A DNA stretch of 7,024 bases, taken from positions 1 to 7,024 of IMG/VR virus record IMGVR_UViG_2547132272_000021. The stretch is one strand, 5' to 3'. Under the pieces are notes generated by a model. The model was not told the origin of the DNA. It worked only from the letters and a program-made list of their open reading frames with translations, and made no database searches. The DNA is from a virus. Its lineage: Duplodnaviria > Heunggongvirae > Uroviricota > Caudoviricetes. Positions 1 to 5,066 of this stretch are shown here, piece by piece; position 1 is the stretch's first letter, and every line of letters starts with the position of its first letter. The translations under genes were made by a program, and so were the position numbers.

Positions 1-87
1 CCATACCCACGGATTACGGGTGCTGGTCACTGCCCCTTCCAGCTTAAGCTCTCCGCTGAAATCCTCTCCCGGCGTGTTCCAGTGTGA
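1..87 (+). CDS. Possible 3' end of an unidentified upstream gene (partial, enters from left edge)
   Basis: Frame 1 is open from the window edge to TGA at 85-87 and the stretch is visibly GC-richer than the following AT-rich intergenic DNA. The opposite strand is also open here but has no in-frame ATG/GTG/TTG before its stop at 181-183, so + is favoured. No product recognisable from about 28 codons. Confidence 0.25.
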   Translation, partial: PYPRITGAGHCPFQLKLSAEILSRRVPV

Positions 88-475
88 TGGTTCATGATAA
101 ATACGAAAAGAATAATCCGGGATTAGGTTAGTAAAGACGGGAATAGATTGGAGTGAAAAATCTTTTGTATCAGCAGTTTGTTAGCGCAAAGATATGTGTT
201 GGTAAAGTTATCCCTTCATTTCTGTGAAACACGAAAAAATGAAAGGATTACGTGATTGTTTCACTAAAGAGGCGAAAAGATGGTTGATTGTATAAAGTCT
301 TCAAATATGTTCAAAACCGCTTCAATACTGCATTTGAAGCTGGTTTAAGGTGGGGCATAGGTGTCTGATAACAGAATTTACTATAAACTTTGTTGATGCA
401 TCATGAATTTAAATGTTTTTATTTAAAATCAATGCGTTAGTGAATATTACATGATACATAGGTGTAAAGTAGCGC

Positions 476-493
476 ATTGCATATCTATGCAAT
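476..493. promoter_or_regulatory. Perfect 8-2-8 palindrome ATTGCATA-tc-TATGCAAT, candidate operator for a dimeric regulator
   Basis: Read directly: ATTGCATA (476-483) and TATGCAAT (486-493) are exact reverse complements; it lies about 25 bp upstream of a candidate -35 hexamer. Confidence 0.4.
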
Positions 494-517
494 ATGTGTC
501 GGATGTGCATAAACACT

Positions 518-550
518 TGCCAACCAATTTTATTGTTGATAACTTATAAA
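518..550 (+). promoter_or_regulatory. Candidate sigma70-type promoter (TTGCCA, about 17 bp spacer, TAACTT/TATAAA) pointing rightward
   Basis: Hexamers read by eye at 518-523 and 541-550 with roughly canonical spacing, just upstream of a hairpin and an intrinsic terminator. Not computed with a promoter model. Confidence 0.25.
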
Positions 551-633
551 AGCACTCGATAAAGTCGAGTGTCGGGCGTAGGAACCCGTGTAAGCACATG
601 GCGACACAAGACGCGCCAAGCGTCTTTTTTATT
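551..633 (+). ncRNA. Candidate short terminated transcript (small RNA or leader), about 80 nt
   Basis: 5' hairpin CACTCGA-taaag-TCGAGTG (553-571), a short stem CGGG/CCCG (about 573-588) and a terminator hairpin plus T-run at 608-633, all directly downstream of the candidate promoter. No ORF with an RBS inside. Confidence 0.3.
608..633 (+). terminator. Rho-independent terminator (AAGACGC-gccaa-GCGTCTT followed by TTTTTTATT)
   Basis: 7-bp GC-rich stem (608-614 / 620-626), 5-nt loop, T-run 625-630 then ATT. Confidence 0.55.
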
Positions 634-689
634 GTCGTAATATCAGCGCACCTGCATTCAGTGGCTTATGGTGCACCGTATCTATGGTG

Positions 690-800
690 GCGCTGGTGGG
701 GCAGTCGAAAGGCTGGCCGGTTTCCTTGTGCGCCGGTATTCCTACCCCCGCCAGCGTCACCGCCCCTTATGAGTGTAGGAACTCAGGCGGTGACTCCTTA
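690..800 (+). ncRNA. GC-rich structured leader upstream of the icd-like gene; candidate C4/CI-type antisense RNA or cis-regulatory structure
   Basis: Long-range pairing GCGCTGGTGGGG (about 691-702) with CCCCGCCAGCG (about 746-757, one G-U), plus hairpin GTCACCGCC (757-765) / GGCGGTGAC (785-793). The six-frame ORFs here (598-801, 684-896) lack RBSs. In phage P1 an icd gene follows the c4 antisense RNA in the immI operon. Confidence 0.3.
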
Positions 801-823
801 AATTTGCACGAGGAGGCTGCCAA

Positions 824-1021
824 ATGGCTACGACCCCAACCACTTTACGCTCTGAATTTACCTTTCATTTTCTGGCTGTTCGCCGTTCCGATCTGAACGA
901 CCGCCCACACCGCGAATCTATTAACGCACCTGATGAAGCAACTGCCCGTCGTATGCTGGCACGTGATTTTGTGTTGGTGTTTGCTGCCTGCATCCCTGCT
1001 AAAGGGGGTAAACATGAATAA
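824..1021 (+). CDS. Small protein (65 aa), probably host cell division inhibitor Icd-like family
   Basis: Strong SD GAGGAGG at 812-818, 5 nt before ATG 824. The sequence (FLAVRRSDL ... ARDFVLVFAA) matches my recollection of Icd-like proteins found in P4-like and P1-like elements; not verified by search. Its stop overlaps the start of the next gene (ATGAATAA). Confidence 0.55.
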   Translation: MATTPTTLRSEFTFHFLAVRRSDLNDRPHRESINAPDEATARRMLARDFVLVFAACIPAKGGKHE

Positions 1022-1418
1022 TGTTGTCAAGTTTCCGGTGCGGAATAATAAAAAAGTTGCGAAATCGAGAGAAGATATTGCTGTAAATCTGTTTAAAGAT
1101 ATTGTTGCTGCTTTATCAAAACAGGCGCGTGACTATATTAATGATGGCGTTACCGGGATCAATGGATGCCTAGATGGTAATGGCGGATATGAAACCTTTC
1201 TATCCTCTTTGTTGCTTTATATTCGTGGCATTGACTCAAAAATTGGCCTGTTTAGTATGTCTCTTGATTCAATACATCCAATACTACATGATGCATGCAA
1301 TGACTTAACGAAAGTTATTTCCCTGACGGAGCGTTTTATTGAAAGTAGAGGCGTAATCGCAGAGGCGGCAAATGGAAAACTTACAGAAGAACAAACGCGG
1401 CAGACTTTCAAAAATTGA
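1014..1418 (+). CDS. Hypothetical protein (134 aa), function unknown
   Basis: ATG 1014 preceded by strong SD AAAGGGGG (1000-1008); overlaps the icd-like stop and is overlapped at its 3' end by the next gene, implying translational coupling. AT-rich codon usage. The six-frame ORF beginning at 933 is out of frame with icd and has no RBS, so 1014 is preferred. Confidence 0.6.
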   Translation: MNNVVKFPVRNNKKVAKSREDIAVNLFKDIVAALSKQARDYINDGVTGINGCLDGNGGYETFLSSLLLYIRGIDSKIGLFSMSLDSIHPILHDACNDLTKVISLTERFIESRGVIAEAANGKLTEEQTRQTFKN

Positions 1419-1734
1419 ATTGCTGCCTGAAAAGATAAAAAGGAAGCTTGATAAAATGCTTATCTCACGTAAGTATTCTCAGGCTGAAATTCTAAATATC
1501 ATAGATCAGGATATAGTAATAGCAGGGTGTTCAGAACTGGTCATATCCAAAACCGGATTGAACAGATATGCGATTAGTTTAATCAATGCTGTTTCGGTAG
1601 CCAAGAAGCATGGAGAAGTGTCTCGCCGTTATAAGCATGCCGAACTACACAGGAGACTTGATAAACTTGAATCAAAGATAGACAGATTAGGGACCAGACT
1701 TGAACGAGTGTTAGAGCTTCTCGAAAAACATTAA
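1372..1734 (+). CDS. Mu gp27-like DNA-binding protein (DUF3486 family; putative small terminase-like or packaging/regulatory protein), 120 aa
   Basis: SD AGAGG at 1361-1365, 6 nt before ATG 1372. N-terminal motif RGRLSKIELLPEKIKRKL ... SQAEILNII ... SKTGLNRYAISL matches the pattern I recall for Mu gp27/DUF3486 proteins (GRKS.ID.LP.EIR ... S.S.L.RY), followed by a coiled-coil-like C-terminus. Ends immediately before an intrinsic terminator. Confidence 0.7.
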   Translation: MENLQKNKRGRLSKIELLPEKIKRKLDKMLISRKYSQAEILNIIDQDIVIAGCSELVISKTGLNRYAISLINAVSVAKKHGEVSRRYKHAELHRRLDKLESKIDRLGTRLERVLELLEKH

Positions 1735-1742
1735 CTATCCCA

Positions 1743-1768
1743 AAGCCGCCCCGTGCGGCTTTTTTATT
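1743..1768 (+). terminator. Rho-independent terminator (AAGCCGC-cccgt-GCGGCTT followed by TTTTTTATTGT)
   Basis: 7-bp GC-rich stem (1743-1749 / 1755-1761), 5-nt loop, T-run 1760-1765, about 10 nt after the stop of the gp27-like gene. Confidence 0.7.
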
Positions 1769-1938
1769 GTTTGGCACTCGCTGTACATATCAGCGCATAT
1801 TTCATGGAAAACGGTAAATCTATCTTCCCTAAAAATCCCGAGTAATCTCACAGCATCCAGAGCAAACGGAGATGGTTCTTTTTTGAAAAAATTATGTTTT
1901 ATCACAATCGGGGATAAACTTATTTTTGATTCCCATAT

Positions 1939-1973
1939 CCGCAATAATCGTTATCGTAACATTGCGGATAACG
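1939..1973. promoter_or_regulatory. Overlapping dyad symmetries (CCGCAAT/ATTGCGG and CGTTATC/GATAACG), candidate operator upstream of the 2055 operon
   Basis: CCGCAAT (1939-1945) with ATTGCGG (1961-1967) and CGTTATC (1949-1955) with GATAACG (1967-1973) are exact reverse-complement pairs in the intergenic region preceding the next gene. Confidence 0.35.
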
Positions 1974-2054
1974 TTAAGTTTGCTGCAAGCATTGGCTATC
2001 GCGCATCGCGCTCAAATGTACACAGGTATATGCAAAAGCTTAAGCGAGAAGATT

Positions 2055-2783
2055 ATGGCTAAACAAACCTTTAAAAATCTCATGTTAACGCCGCCACACA
2101 ATGATATTACAGCGATAAATAAATTCATTGTTTCTTCATGCTTTTCTCGTGATATCTGTGATGTTATGTCTTATATCGGTAAAATGGGATATGCATGTAA
2201 TTATAATGAAGTCAGTGAGCATGTGAAATTGATTGAAAAACAATTCCACGCAGTAAAACATGAACAGAGAGGCGAGTGTGAAATTGATGTTTTTTGTAAT
2301 GTCGCAGGCACCGCTCTCTTTAATGAATTTATATCTGTTTGCGGGAAACAGACGTTCTATCTTGATGCAATGAAATTTGAACCGGATTTTTTTAGTGGTG
2401 GCCCGGTTAAGCATATCCGCAAAACTGCTATTATCGCTTTATTGAGAAATGAAACAAAGATTCTTCCAGAAAGTGTGACCATGATTATGGGCGCTATTGA
2501 GGCGGCATTAAAAAAAATTGGAGTAGACCCACAAGAAGAAGTAAACAGCACGACAAAAATATTCATTGCAACAAAGGCATTTCTGGAAGTTGTAGGTGGA
2601 ATTCAGTTTTATTTACCTAAGGCCGACTCACTTAGTAGAATAATGAAAAAAGCAAATATATATGCAGATAGTTATGTTATGTCTCCTGCTGAACTAGCTA
2701 TTAAATATGGGGAGTCTGGTAAATCGATATACACAACAATAAAACATGTAGGAGCGGTTATTGGTAATCATGAGCAAAGTTAA
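2055..2783 (+). CDS. Hypothetical protein (about 243 aa from ATG 2055; alternative starts at 2016 or TTG 1926), function unknown
   Basis: Long open frame with AT-rich codon usage; ATG 2055 has a weak SD-like GAGAAG 4 nt upstream, whereas 2016 and 1926 lack one. Cys-containing N-terminal half; no catalytic motif recognised. 3' end overlaps the next gene by 14 nt. Confidence 0.6.
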   Translation: MAKQTFKNLMLTPPHNDITAINKFIVSSCFSRDICDVMSYIGKMGYACNYNEVSEHVKLIEKQFHAVKHEQRGECEIDVFCNVAGTALFNEFISVCGKQTFYLDAMKFEPDFFSGGPVKHIRKTAIIALLRNETKILPESVTMIMGAIEAALKKIGVDPQEEVNSTTKIFIATKAFLEVVGGIQFYLPKADSLSRIMKKANIYADSYVMSPAELAIKYGESGKSIYTTIKHVGAVIGNHEQS

Positions 2784-3192
2784 CATAAATAATGCACACA
2801 TATTACAAACAGGTCTGAGCCTCGGTATTGATGTAATGAGAAGTAATCTTCCTGAAGAGTTAAAACTTGTAGAACGTGCAGTTATTGAATCATGTAATGA
2901 TATTGGCTTAAATCCAGAGCATGAAATTAATGGTTTATCATTTATTGGTCGGGTCATATTAAAAATAATGGAACTACAAACCGGATGTAGTTTCATACCT
3001 GAGTATGCGATTGATTCATCCAGAATTATTTTTATTTCTAAAGTTGCTGCATATGCAGAAAAATTTGGAGCAGATAAAGCAGCCAAAGCCTACTCCATTA
3101 CAGTAGATCAGGTTACGGAAATGATGAATGAAGCAAGTATGTTTGTTTCCCAATTTGATGATTTTGGTATAGACAAGGAGAAAAGCCACTGA
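2770..3192 (+). CDS. Hypothetical protein (141 aa), function unknown; translationally coupled to the upstream gene
   Basis: ATG 2770 lies inside the end of the previous ORF (14-nt overlap); continuous open frame with the same AT-rich composition; no recognisable domain. Confidence 0.6.
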   Translation: MSKVNINNAHILQTGLSLGIDVMRSNLPEELKLVERAVIESCNDIGLNPEHEINGLSFIGRVILKIMELQTGCSFIPEYAIDSSRIIFISKVAAYAEKFGADKAAKAYSITVDQVTEMMNEASMFVSQFDDFGIDKEKSH

Positions 3193-3246
3193 AACACGCT
3201 GTGATGTTGTTTTGTCTTATCGGCGGTGTTCTGGGTGCCCTGCACC

Positions 3247-3290
3247 TTTTTGAAGGTGCTACGGTGTTTTTGAAGGGGTTTTGAAGGGGG
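3247..3290 (+). repeat. Three direct copies of TTTTTGAAGG(GG) immediately upstream of the head-gene operon; candidate activator-binding or late-promoter element
   Basis: Copies at 3247-3256, 3267-3278 and 3279-3290; the last G-run may double as the SD for ATG 3301. A related TTTTTTGAAAAAA occurs at about 1880-1893 upstream of the 2055 operon. Confidence 0.4.
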
Positions 3291-3300
3291 TTTTGCATCC

Positions 3301-4140
3301 ATGACAGAGGAACTAATGAATATAATCGCTTTATGCACTGATTTATCGGGTGATAAGACTCCTCCGGAATGGGTTGAGTTACTGCCAGCAGGACCGGAAA
3401 TTGAAGGGCGTGACGGAAGGAGCTGGACACTTAAAGATCCACAAAGCATTAAACAGGCGTTTTCGTGTCGCGGAATGTCACTTGTGGTCGATTATGAACA
3501 CTCTACAGAAGTGATTGCACCAAAAGGTGGCGAGGCTCCTGCCGCCGGATGGATTAATGACGTTGCTGTCCGTAATGATGGTTCTGTATGGGGAAGAGTT
3601 GAATGGACTCCACGGGCAATGAATTCCATTACATCCCGTGAATACCGATACCTTTCACCAGCGTTCCGTCATTCTCAGGATGGTGAAATACTGGAACTCG
3701 TTAGCGTGGCGTTAACGAATAAACCAAATCTGAAACTTACTGCGCTGAATACTCAGCAGACACTTAGCAAAATCGCACTGGCACTTAATATGGAGGAAGT
3801 TAATTCACTTGAAGAAGTGCTGACAGCGTTAAATAAAAGACAAGCTGAACAACATAGTCAGATTGTAAATGAATATATCGAAAAAGCTGTTTTCTGTCCG
3901 GCCCAGCGGAATATTCTTCTGTCCATGTGTTCAAGTGTTGGAGAAAATGCATTCAGGAAGTTTGCTGATATGCAGGAAAAATCGACGAGTAATTTTTTAC
4001 ACTTTGCTAGGCCTGTAAGTGTAAAAGGTAAAGAACCCCCGAGAACGCTTACTGAATCGCAACTGGCTGTTTGCCGCATTACAGGTGTAAGCGAAGAAGA
4101 CTATTTGATAGCTTTAGGAAAAGAAAATGAAAGATATTAA
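3301..4140 (+). CDS. Mu I-like head maturation protease / scaffold protein (279 aa)
   Basis: Sits immediately upstream of, and overlaps by 14 nt, a clear Mu gpT-like major head gene, which is the Mu I-T arrangement. Motifs VEWTPRA, YRYLSPAF and ALTNKPNL fit my recollection of the Mu-like prophage I protein family; the C-terminal third is helical and charged, as expected for a scaffold. An alternative start at ATG 3316 (SD GAGG 3307-3310) is possible. Confidence 0.72.
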   Translation: MTEELMNIIALCTDLSGDKTPPEWVELLPAGPEIEGRDGRSWTLKDPQSIKQAFSCRGMSLVVDYEHSTEVIAPKGGEAPAAGWINDVAVRNDGSVWGRVEWTPRAMNSITSREYRYLSPAFRHSQDGEILELVSVALTNKPNLKLTALNTQQTLSKIALALNMEEVNSLEEVLTALNKRQAEQHSQIVNEYIEKAVFCPAQRNILLSMCSSVGENAFRKFADMQEKSTSNFLHFARPVSVKGKEPPRTLTESQLAVCRITGVSEEDYLIALGKENERY

Positions 4141-5023
4141 TTGTGTAATTGCTGATGCTACTATCGCTTTTAACGCCAAGTTTGAATCAGGAAAAAAAGC
4201 CTACAATCCTGTACATCCAACGATTGCTTCAGAAGTAACGTCTTCATCGGCAGTTAGTGCTTATGGCTTCCTCGAAGATTTCCCGGAAATCAAAGAGTGG
4301 TTAAACGACCGACAGTTAAAATCACTGTCAACCCGTGATTATTTTCTGAAAAATAAAACGTTTGAAAGCAGCATTCAAATTAAACGTGAGGATTTTGAAG
4401 ATAATGATTATGGTAAGTATTCAATGGTTTTTGAACAGTACGGGCGCAAAGCGGCTGCATTCCCTGATAAGTTACTGTTTGAAGCTATGAAGAAAGGGCA
4501 CTTATCAGAAGGAATTGATGGGCATAACTTCTTTGCTACTGACCATCCTAATGGTGAAGGCGTTTATTCAAACCTCTATGGAAGCAATCCAGCAAAAAAT
4601 GCAGATGCAACGCCGTTATGGTACTTATTTGATGGTAGTCAGGGATTGAAACCTTTTATTTATCAGGTTCGTCGTCCAATGGCTGTAACTTCTGTTACTG
4701 ATTCCGGCGCTACCGATGTGTTTCTGAATAATCGTTTTCTGTTTGGTGTTGATGGGCGTCTTAATGTTGGATATGCAATGTGGCAATGCGCAGCGGCATC
4801 ATGGGATACGCTGAATGAAACCACATTTAATGAAGTGTACGACGGGATGTTATCCGTTAAGGGAAGTAGCGGTGAACCATTGGGAATCGTGCCTACTGTT
4901 ATTGTAGTCCCCGTATCGTTAAGAGCCGCAGCGGAAAAATTGCTGTTACGTCAGTATCTGGATAACGGGGAAGACAATCCAAATTATAAACGCGTGGAAA
5001 TTATTGTTTCACCATTTATTTGA
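4127..5023 (+). CDS. Major head (capsid) subunit, Mu gpT-like family (298 aa)
   Basis: SD AGGAA at 4116-4120 before ATG 4127. Multiple motifs match the Mu T protein as I recall it: NKTFE, EDFEDN, GRKAAAFPD.LLFEA, GHNFFATDHP, WYLFDGSQGLKPFIYQ.R, NVGYAMWQCAA, VVPVSLRAAA, NGEDNPNY. Length also matches. Confidence 0.85.
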   Translation: MKDINCVIADATIAFNAKFESGKKAYNPVHPTIASEVTSSSAVSAYGFLEDFPEIKEWLNDRQLKSLSTRDYFLKNKTFESSIQIKREDFEDNDYGKYSMVFEQYGRKAAAFPDKLLFEAMKKGHLSEGIDGHNFFATDHPNGEGVYSNLYGSNPAKNADATPLWYLFDGSQGLKPFIYQVRRPMAVTSVTDSGATDVFLNNRFLFGVDGRLNVGYAMWQCAAASWDTLNETTFNEVYDGMLSVKGSSGEPLGIVPTVIVVPVSLRAAAEKLLLRQYLDNGEDNPNYKRVEIIVSPFI

Positions 5024-5029
5024 TAATTC

Positions 5030-5054
5030 GGAGGGGATTTCCCCTCCTGTTTTT
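5030..5054 (+). terminator. GC-rich hairpin plus short T-run just after the capsid gene stop; possible partial terminator/attenuator
   Basis: GGAGGGG (5030-5036) - attt - CCCCTCC (5041-5047) followed by TGTTTTTAT. The T-run is short (5 T) and overlaps the first candidate ATG of the next gene. Confidence 0.4.
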
Positions 5055-5066
5055 ATGGGGAATATA

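Follow-up and report, generated by a model that had tools for sequence, protein, structure and literature searches.

Two similar intrinsic terminators, probably with different jobs, at an IsrK/SeqA-C4/CI-type locus of a Mu-type mobile element

Introduction

The window analysed here, a stretch of 7,024 nucleotides of Caudoviricetes DNA (IMGVR_UViG_2547132272_000021), contains two rightward intrinsic terminators, T1 and T2, that resemble each other closely. Downstream of each stands the 11-mer ATATCAGCGCA, at the places where an initial annotation had reported it, and then a similar motif: ATTCAGTGG (656-664) after the first 11-mer (site A) and TTTCATGG (1800-1807) after the second (site B). The + strand of the window has exactly these two occurrences of the 11-mer. 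The annotation took the whole for a duplicated module of about 60 bp and suggested a repeated regulatory cassette, either a terminator with a regulated restart site or paired antisense targets in the manner of P4 seqA/seqC. Are T1 and T2 copies of one such unit, or do they serve different ends? The second answer is preferred here, with a probability of about 0.8: T1 and T2 are separate intrinsic terminators that do different jobs in one operon, and not cassette copies. The features on which the argument turns are collected in Table 1.

Table 1. Features of the window, in order of position.
Feature	Position	Strand	Basis or remark
Whole mobile element	83-6980	+	Mu-type ends TG...CA; target duplication TCCAG at 78-82 and 6981-6985
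Candidate promoter of the IsrK-like RNA	517-545	+	TTGCCA, 17 nt, TAACTT; proposed from reading the sequence
IsrK/SeqA-type leader RNA	552-630	+	Rfam RF01394, 59.4 bits (gathering score 50); model positions 1-77, full length
a1, upstream target/mimic complementary to C4 a'	574-584	+	Pairing energy -16.7 kcal/mol
b1, upstream target/mimic complementary to the C4 b' loop	594-605	+	b':b1 pairing
T1, first copy of the 28-mer	608-635	+	Rho-independent terminator of the IsrK-like RNA; stem 608-614/620-626, T run 625-630
11-mer, site A	640-650	+	Inside the 49-nt 5' leader (631-679) between T1 and C4
C4/CI-type antisense RNA	680-767	+	Rfam RF01695, 77.1 bits (gathering score 45); b' loop 720-731, a' 739-749
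a2, downstream target of C4 a'	773-781	+	a' pairing
b2, downstream target of the C4 b' loop	806-817	+	Over the icd Shine-Dalgarno GAGGAGG (810-816); ATG at 824
icd-like gene	824-1021	+	RefSeq annotation of an identical copy; PHROG hits
orf134	1014-1418	+	Placed where P1-like and P4-like loci have an anti-repressor/derepression gene
Short Mu gp27-like protein, N-terminal part of a small terminase family	1372-1734	+	Pfam PF11985, E = 1.9e-9; PHROG 426
T2, second copy of the 28-mer	1743-1770	+	Intrinsic terminator at the end of the icd-orf134-gp27-like operon
11-mer, site B	1787-1797	+	Inside the variable spacer 1771-1800

Two genuine terminators

T1 (AAGACGCGCCAAGCGTCTTTTTTATTGT) and T2 (AAGCCGCCCCGTGCGGCTTTTTTATTGT) are identical at 23 of 28 positions, which bears out their description as near-copies, and a repeat finder independently ranks them as the longest direct repeat of the window (D1, 28 nt, 82%). 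Each consists of a 5-nt loop closed by a stem of 7 bp, with six T in a row; the hairpin of T1 spans 608-626. Of the five mismatches between them, three fall in the loop and the other two make up a single compensatory base pair of the stem (A-T to C-G). The resemblance also exceeds chance. For comparison, 45 unrelated sites resembling terminators were drawn from E. coli DNA (about 237 kb) and aligned where the T run begins; the 989 pairs agree on average at 11.5 +/- 2.3 of 28 positions, the best pair reaches 21, and none reaches 22. T1 and T2 are two genuine and similar terminators. T2 begins 9 nt past the stop codon of the gp27-like gene, and among the copies of the element its stem is conserved while its loop varies. 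With a GC-rich stem, a short loop, a full T run, a conserved stem and a free loop, it looks like any Rho-independent terminator at the end of an operon, and differs from these only in its unusual likeness to T1.

An IsrK/SeqA-type RNA ends at T1

T1 is the terminator of an RNA of the IsrK/SeqA family, and this RNA is followed after 49 nt by a C4/CI-type RNA. The C4 sequence folds at -48.8 kcal/mol, and its predicted minimum-energy structure reproduces the two hairpins closed by a long stem. The c4-a1b1 model (RF03163) falls short of its gathering score here (21 against 46.7 bits), and the isrK model passes. IsrK has a structural homologue in P4 SeqA (PMC4825925), the literature equates IsrK with SeqA and C4 with CI (PMC4825925; PMC10111431), and relatives of CI and seqA are detected by the Rfam C4 and isrK models (PMC10111431). 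The order isrK, spacer, C4, icd is also that of P1-like and P4-like E. coli loci, in which the spacers measure 44-98 nt. T1 itself is identical at 22-24 of 28 positions to the IsrK terminators of these loci.

Scanning the C4 core against the whole window places a1/b1 first among the targets (-28.7 kcal/mol), with b2 at -23.6 kcal/mol; b2 and b' form an uninterrupted 15-bp duplex of -23.2 kcal/mol. The heptamer GTAGGAA occurs in the window only at 578-584 and 775-781, that is, in a1 and a2. It faces TTCCTAC in a', and in the IMG/VR relative GTAGCAA faces TTGCTAC. Covariation of a1 with a' and a2 is seen in the IMG/VR and P1-like loci, and in b the GCAC/GTGC of the window becomes GTAC/GTAC in the IMG/VR relative. 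Each of the six loci compared has a b-specificity of its own, and the three partners have changed in step. When every b' is paired with every b2, each b' has its best partner, alone or in a tie, in the b2 of its own locus; for b1 the cognate pair is best in 5 of 6, the exception being the window, whose own b' pairs slightly better with the b1 of the IMG/VR relative (-11.9 vs -10.1). This three-way covariation across six loci supports a1/b1 and a2/b2 as the antisense targets. A further pairing was considered and set aside: in the minimum-energy fold of 552-835, residues 651-660 pair with the a2 region to form a leader-trailer stem around C4, and the idea was dropped because the leader of the IMG/VR relative, read by eye, cannot form it.

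The annotation's comparison with P4 therefore stands in part. A homologous system is present at site A, and as in the satellite phage P4 (seqA, CI RNA = seqB, seqC) an antisense RNA lies between complementary sites on the same transcript, from which in P4 it is processed; both the isrK and the C4 model also match in P4-like E. coli islands, in the order seen in the window. What does not stand is the choice of sites, since the equivalents of seqA and seqC are a1/b1 and a2/b2 and not the 11-mers. At the 11-mers the C4 core reaches only -16.5 and -15.3 kcal/mol, within about one standard deviation of the background (-12.0 +/- 4.4), and no covariation is seen. Nor do the 11-mers flank the antisense gene, as site B lies 1,020 nt past C4, beyond three ORFs and a terminator. 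The b specificity of the window is unlike that of every P4-like locus examined.

The 11-mers might still be extra targets of C4, as ATATCAGCGCA is nearly complementary to C4 729-739 (TGCGCCGGTAT). This is the least probable of the readings weighed here. The complement inside C4 has two mismatches, and by manual count 10 of the 11 positions could pair if one G-U is allowed; however, about 2.25 hits with at most two mismatches are expected by chance in the window, and hairpin 2 of C4 would have to open. The G to A change in b' of the IMG/VR relative has its counterpart in b1 and b2 and none in the leader, and sister copies alter bases of site B while C4 is unchanged.

The shared 11-mer

If the two sites were copies of a module, they should align. 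They do not: site A has 4 nt between the 28-mer and the 11-mer, and site B has 16 nt, so that the supposed module of about 60 bp is not colinear and a plain alignment leaves the 11-mers out of register. The non-chance placement claimed for the 11-mer holds only nominally. For two pre-chosen stretches of 60 nt, sharing an 11-mer has a P of about 5e-4 to 8e-4; yet the window contains 8 separate stretches with repeats of at least 11 nt (17 repeated 11-mers). When the 195 nt 3' of each terminator are aligned locally with gaps allowed, the best result is GTA-ATATCAGCGCA only, with P = 0.005 against shuffles and 0.036 against random pairs of real stretches of the window.

The element that carries the locus was compared across four lineages only, which are 92-98% identical overall. 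At site B the UMNF18 copy, two RIVM copies and one metagenome contig read ATATCCGTGCA in place of ATATCAGCGCA, and the IMG/VR copy keeps ATATCCGT and then has an insertion of about 1.3 kb, so the exact 11-mer is absent there from all three other lineages. The surrounding spacer varies in 9 of its 30 columns, against a mean of 1.8, which puts it among the patches of the element that vary most; 574-873 has 3 in 300. All E. coli copies agree in the 11-mer of site A, as they do throughout 574-873; the IMG/VR relative and the P1-like and P4-like loci have not kept this 11-mer. The downstream motif is thus lost at site B within the element family and at site A in more distant relatives. The window's own site-B patch has seven private substitutions in 30 nt. 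Its state is most simply taken as derived, because UMNF18, the closest relative overall (146 differences, vs 346 for RIVM), reads ATATCCGTGCA; the patch could also be a piece recombined from an unsampled relative with an older motif. Gene conversion from site A to site B is unsupported, because 3 of the 7 private substitutions move towards A and about 2.3 would do so by chance.

These results bear on the cassette, in which a single protein or RNA factor would recognise the terminator and ATATCAGCGCA and govern read-through or restart both where the operon begins and where it ends. The likeness of T1 and T2, the nominal improbability of the shared 11-mer and the invariance of site A in all E. 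coli copies speak for it, but it is brought close to refutation by the conservation comparison and disagrees with the 12-nt difference in spacing. The promoter scan predicts no sigma-70-like promoter at the 11-mer of either site. TAATAT at 638-643 was rejected as a -10 candidate, as a usable -35 hexamer is missing and relatives do not preserve the sequence. A search for an antisense partner of the 11-mer returned no complement with at most one mismatch anywhere in the window. We regard the cassette as very improbable. A small hairpin at site B, CGCTG...CAGCG (1779-1795), was rejected as well, being broken in sister copies. The 11-mers would have no function of their own, site A being leader sequence and site B fast-changing spacer, and their match appears to be a coincidence private to the window's lineage.

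Origin of the likeness between T1 and T2

The preferred account leaves the likeness between T1 and T2 unexplained; a short duplication or recombination is possible, and so is convergence. One proposal is that T2 descends from an IsrK-type terminator by a real duplication or recombination of some 30-45 bp, the downstream likeness being a decayed remnant and both sites now being plain terminators. It is compatible with the reading preferred here and differs on origin only. T2 resembles T1 more than any of the 989 unrelated pairs resemble each other, and as closely as the genuine IsrK terminators of other elements do. The isrK model also matches 1700-1765 weakly (21.5 bits, E = 0.25), nearly all of it through the terminator, and the downstream alignment with GTA-ATATCAGCGCA points the same way at the P values given above. 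Against this, the likeness stops at the boundary of the 28-mer on the 5' side, and an Rfam scan finds no C4-like RNA downstream of T2. In the IMG/VR relative T1 and T2 agree at only 19 of 28 positions by manual count and diverge past the T run (TTTTTTTGTGT vs TTTTTTATTGC), and the P1-like and P4-like loci have no second IsrK-like terminator within 2.5 kb. Such a duplication is conceivable but rather doubtful.

A model for the operon

With T1 and T2 taken as separate terminators, a working model can be proposed by comparison with known loci. Transcription would start just upstream of 552, and a candidate promoter lies there; its TTGCCA hexamer is kept in the IMG/VR relative, and it falls below the threshold of the promoter scan. 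Most transcripts would end at T1 and give an IsrK/SeqA-type RNA of about 79 nt carrying the mimics a1 and b1. Since a known IsrK/SeqA-C4/CI system is found at T1, this terminator is plausibly leaky and regulated, like that of Salmonella IsrK, which a subset of transcripts passes (PMC4825925). The Salmonella homologue is a short stable transcript with partial terminator read-through and Hfq binding, and the stable RNA downstream of it relies on the isrK promoter (PMC4825925).

Read-through of T1 would cross the 49-nt leader, including the 11-mer of site A, and enter C4, which would then be excised from the precursor. The 5' cut of the C4/CI RNA is made by RNase P in P1/P7 and P4. Once released, C4 would pair through a' and b' with a2 and b2, cover the ribosome-binding site of icd and turn icd off. 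The icd-like, orf134 and gp27-like genes overlap and are probably translationally coupled, so that the shut-off of icd may also silence the other two. Position alone suggests an anti-repressor- or derepression-type role for orf134, which has no Pfam or PHROG match. By analogy with Salmonella IsrK, the short RNA would compete for C4 or open the closed structure, and the operon would be switched on. T2 would halt transcription 9 nt beyond the last stop codon, before the Mor-type activator genes. Site B takes no part in the RNA switch.

Two further known systems stand close to this locus. Phage P1/P7 immI (a1b1, c4, a2b2, icd, ant; RF01695, RF03163) shares with it the order of the parts, an icd homologue and an a2/b2 target lying across the start of icd translation; the difference is that an Ant homologue is not recognised in the window. 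Salmonella Gifsy-1 isrK-orf45-anrP (PMC4825925) also begins with an RF01394 short RNA that ends in a Rho-independent terminator, partly read through in Gifsy-1, and continues with a stable processed RNA, a small first ORF with its ribosome-binding site hidden by RNA pairing, and coupled genes. Here, however, the genes are icd-like, orf134 and a short Mu gp27-like gene and not an annotated anti-repressor, and while the Gifsy-1 locus sits in a lambdoid prophage, that of the window sits in a Mu-type transposable element.

The carrier element

This element is complete and measures 6.9 kb, with target duplications of 5 bp. Four insertions at unrelated sites have the duplications TCCAG, GCCAG, GCGCC and CTGAG. 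Its genes encode Mor-type activators, a head protease/scaffold, a major head protein, a tape-measure-like protein and the short gp27-like protein. Neither ORFs nor Pfam matches for MuA or MuB are found within 83-6980, and the element has no repressor or integrase. It is non-autonomous, because it lacks MuA and MuB genes. Its TG...CA termini have Mu-like end repeats, its right end resembles that of a Mu-like prophage, and the element is seen only in genomes that also carry such a prophage. The chances seem to us evenly balanced that it is a Mu-dependent transposable phage satellite, a natural "mini-Mu", with T1 and T2 as the entry and exit of its early operon, gated by the P1/P4-type IsrK-C4 RNA switch. 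On such a reading the operon could derepress the helper or redirect packaging. A search of the searchable literature found no description of a Mu-dependent satellite of this kind.

A megablast of the whole window against the phage collection gives no match, and a query of the GTDB species genomes with the Mor-like protein finds no relative, a single-protein query of this sort finding only close relatives. In IMG/VR, queries with the Mor-like and gp27-like proteins lead to the same single contig. A metagenome scan with the 19-mer adjoining site B gives 12 hits, of which two are real, one of the window type (L018) and one of the RIVM type (L022), and it adds no new lineage.

Conclusion

The flagged feature adds one more example to the IsrK/SeqA-C4/CI-icd RNA immunity switches described for P1, P4 and Gifsy-1, with an ordinary terminator at the end of the operon. 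In annotation, T1 should be labelled as an IsrK terminator, a1/b1 and a2/b2 are the motifs that matter, and caution is advised with the "ash family protein" CDS that overlies C4. The matched b-specificities of the six loci illustrate neatly, from natural variation, how types of RNA immunity diversify. If the element is indeed a satellite, transposition would join the known ways in which satellites exploit their helper phages.

The IsrK-C4-icd switch at site A

Site A, the copy of the 11-mer downstream of terminator T1, belongs to a newly found member of an RNA immunity system that is itself already well known. Rfam models identify an IsrK RNA whose terminator is T1, followed by a C4 antisense RNA and then by an icd-like gene. 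The order isrK, spacer, C4, icd also occurs in one P1-like plasmid and three P4-like islands of E. coli. IsrK is a structural homologue of P4 SeqA (PMC4825925), and relatives of CI and seqA are detected by the Rfam C4 and isrK models (PMC10111431). In Salmonella, the IsrK terminator is read through by a fraction of transcripts, and a stable RNA downstream of IsrK depends on the isrK promoter (PMC4825925).

Features of the switch, the two terminators, and further copies of the element
Feature	Position	Details
IsrK RNA	552-630	Rfam, 59.4 bits (gathering score 50); terminator T1
a1	574-584	inside IsrK-like RNA; pairs with a'
b1	594-605	inside IsrK-like RNA; pairs with b'
T1	608-635	AAGACGCGCCAAGCGTCTTTTTTATTGT
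11-mer, site A	640-650	ATATCAGCGCA
Motif after site-A 11-mer	656-664	ATTCAGTGG
C4 antisense RNA	680-767	Rfam, 77.1 bits (gathering score 45)
C4 b'	within 720-731	12-nt loop
C4 a'	739-749	single-stranded stretch
a2	773-781	downstream of C4; pairs with a'
b2	806-817	downstream of C4; pairs with b'; covers icd Shine-Dalgarno, ATG at 824
icd-like gene	824-1021	downstream of C4
orf134	1014-1418	middle gene of operon
T2	1743-1770	AAGCCGCCCCGTGCGGCTTTTTTATTGT
11-mer, site B	1787-1797	ATATCAGCGCA
Motif after site-B 11-mer	1800-1807	TTTCATGG
Further copy of element	L002 10005-16903	
Further copy of element	L003 7394-14289	
Further copy of element	L004 3003-9898	

With the C4 core as probe, a scan of all 30-nt stretches in the window puts a1/b1 at the top (-28.7 kcal/mol), and b2 forms an uninterrupted duplex with C4 (-23.6 kcal/mol). 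The 11-mer stretches reach -16.5 and -15.3 kcal/mol, against a background of -12.0 +/- 4.4. Both pairings covary three ways between the window and the IMG/VR relative: a changes from GTAGGAA/TTCCTAC/GTAGGAA to GTAGCAA/TTGCTAC/GTAGCA, and b from GCAC/GTGC/GCAC to GTAC/GTAC/GTAC. Among six loci, no b' pairs better with a foreign b2 than with its cognate one, although ties occur. For five of the six, the cognate b1 is the best partner; the b' of the window has a slight preference for the IMG/VR b1. As suggested in the initial annotation, this locus does have paired antisense targets of the P4 kind, in the form of a1/b1 and a2/b2; they are neither the 11-mers nor at site B.

A model can be proposed; its read-through and processing steps, and the direction in which it switches, are taken from homologues. 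Transcription would be driven by a putative promoter just upstream of 552. The majority of transcripts would stop at T1, yielding the IsrK-like RNA, and C4 would be processed from those reading through. By pairing with a2/b2, C4 would mask the icd ribosome-binding site, silencing icd and its coupled genes. The short RNA bearing a1/b1 would compete for C4, turning the operon on, and T2 would mark the operon's end, ahead of the Mor-type activator genes.

In RefSeq, an "ash family protein" CDS spans 642-896; its start codon is not ATG and lies within the site-A 11-mer. The part of the product that matches Pfam PF10554 (E = 4e-17) is translated C4 sequence, and the ash family may largely reflect a conserved RNA and not a real protein.

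The terminators and the 11-mer

T1 and T2, which both form terminator hairpins, are indeed near-copies: they are identical at 23 of 28 positions, and a repeat finder independently lists them as the window's longest direct repeat. The mismatches are three loop bases and one compensatory stem pair. About 237 kb of E. coli DNA supplied 45 unrelated terminator-like sites for comparison. In register at the T run, their mean pairwise identity is 11.5 +/- 2.3 of 28; the top pair has 21, and none of the 989 pairs reaches 22. T1 and T2 are therefore more alike than terminators ordinarily are, and as similar as T1 is to true IsrK terminators of other elements (22-24 of 28). A short duplication or recombination may be the origin of the likeness, though this is less likely than not, and would leave the function of T1 and T2 unchanged.

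Three genes overlap here: the icd-like gene, orf134 and, last, one for a short Mu gp27-like protein (Pfam PF11985), with its stop codon 9 nt before T2. The stem of T2 is conserved among copies and the loop is variable. T2 looks like a plain terminator ending an operon, and the paired-target switch does not involve site B. Over the first 3.3 kb of the element, variable columns are most crowded at 1074-1373, within orf134 (18, 13 and 21 per 100 nt, compared with 0-9 in the rest of those 3.3 kb). The gene, for which no family match was found, occupies the slot of the anti-repressor or derepression gene in P1-like and P4-like loci, and may be evolving fast.

The 11-mer occurs in the window at its two sites only, and the 11-mers and their following motifs sit exactly where first described. 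However, the supposed duplicated unit of about 60 bp is not colinear: the gap from the 28-mer to the 11-mer is 4 nt at site A versus 16 nt at site B, and plain pairwise alignment does not bring the 11-mers into register. An 11-mer shared between two pre-chosen 60-nt stretches has P ~5e-4 to 8e-4; the window contains eight separate repeated stretches of at least 11 nt. Local alignment with gaps, applied to the 195 nt that follow each terminator, yields at best GTA-ATATCAGCGCA (P = 0.005 versus shuffles, 0.036 versus real-sequence pairs). No complement of the 11-mer that could be the envisaged antisense partner occurs in the window at one mismatch or fewer, and a complement with two mismatches within C4 (729-739) does not covary. 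Promoter prediction gave nothing at either 11-mer.

Nor is the motif kept in relatives. Across the four known lineages of the element (window type, UMNF18, RIVM and the IMG/VR relative), site B reads ATATCCGTGCA in UMNF18, two RIVM copies and one metagenome contig, while the IMG/VR copy shares ATATCCGT before an insertion of about 1.3 kb. Since UMNF18 is the closest relative overall, the window's exact site-B 11-mer is most simply read as derived. Variable columns make up 9 of 30 in 1771-1800, versus a mean of 1.8. Among E. coli copies site A does not vary, but the whole of 574-873 is just as constant, with 3 variable columns in 300. The IMG/VR relative, like the P1-like and P4-like loci, has a different leader at site A, with only a loose GC(A/G)CACC in common. 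Lack of conservation of the downstream motif in homologous elements, the result that the initial annotation named as refuting its idea, is thus what is seen. The flagged duplicated module is not a functional unit.

The surrounding Mu-type element

The window holds a complete 6,898-bp Mu-type element (83-6980) with TG...CA ends and Mu-like end repeats, flanked by a 5-bp target duplication, TCCAG (78-82 and 6981-6985). This and three further copies are inserted in unrelated genes, each with its own 5-bp target duplication. In E. coli STEC388, a copy (L001 16983-17700 region) matches the window at 100% identity over 83-5065 before an IS1 insertion cuts it off, with loss of the tape-measure-like gene and the right end.

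Three closely spaced TTTTGAAGG(T/G)G repeats at 3240-3295, immediately ahead of the head protease gene, may be a binding site of a late, Mor/C-type promoter; the complement of one copy recurs, at 94%, near the left end (310-325). An unannotated ORF of 59 aa, which begins with TTG (1883-2062), runs up to the start of the Mor-like gene and hardly varies among copies; its PHROG 15000 match is weak (E = 1.5e-4). The IMG/VR relative, contig IMGVR_UViG_2778261544_000011, is more distant, with a different left region and with a and b immunity specificities both different from the window's. It carries four (T)TATTCAAGATAA-like repeats, iteron-like in appearance (L010 2560-2960). Its insertion (L010 about 4423-5760) sits exactly at the site-B motif, has two overlapping ORFs of 136 and 301 aa, and resembles an insertion sequence.

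The element encodes Mor-like activators, a head protease, a major head protein, a tape-measure-like protein and the short gp27-like protein; no transposase, repressor or integrase was found among its ORFs and Pfam matches. A Mu-like prophage has a similar right end. There are 14 copies in 9 of 5,426 complete E. coli genomes, and all nine fall among the 51 with a Mu-like prophage. The literature searched holds no description of a Mu-dependent satellite of this sort, and we consider the element a candidate Mu-dependent transposable satellite.
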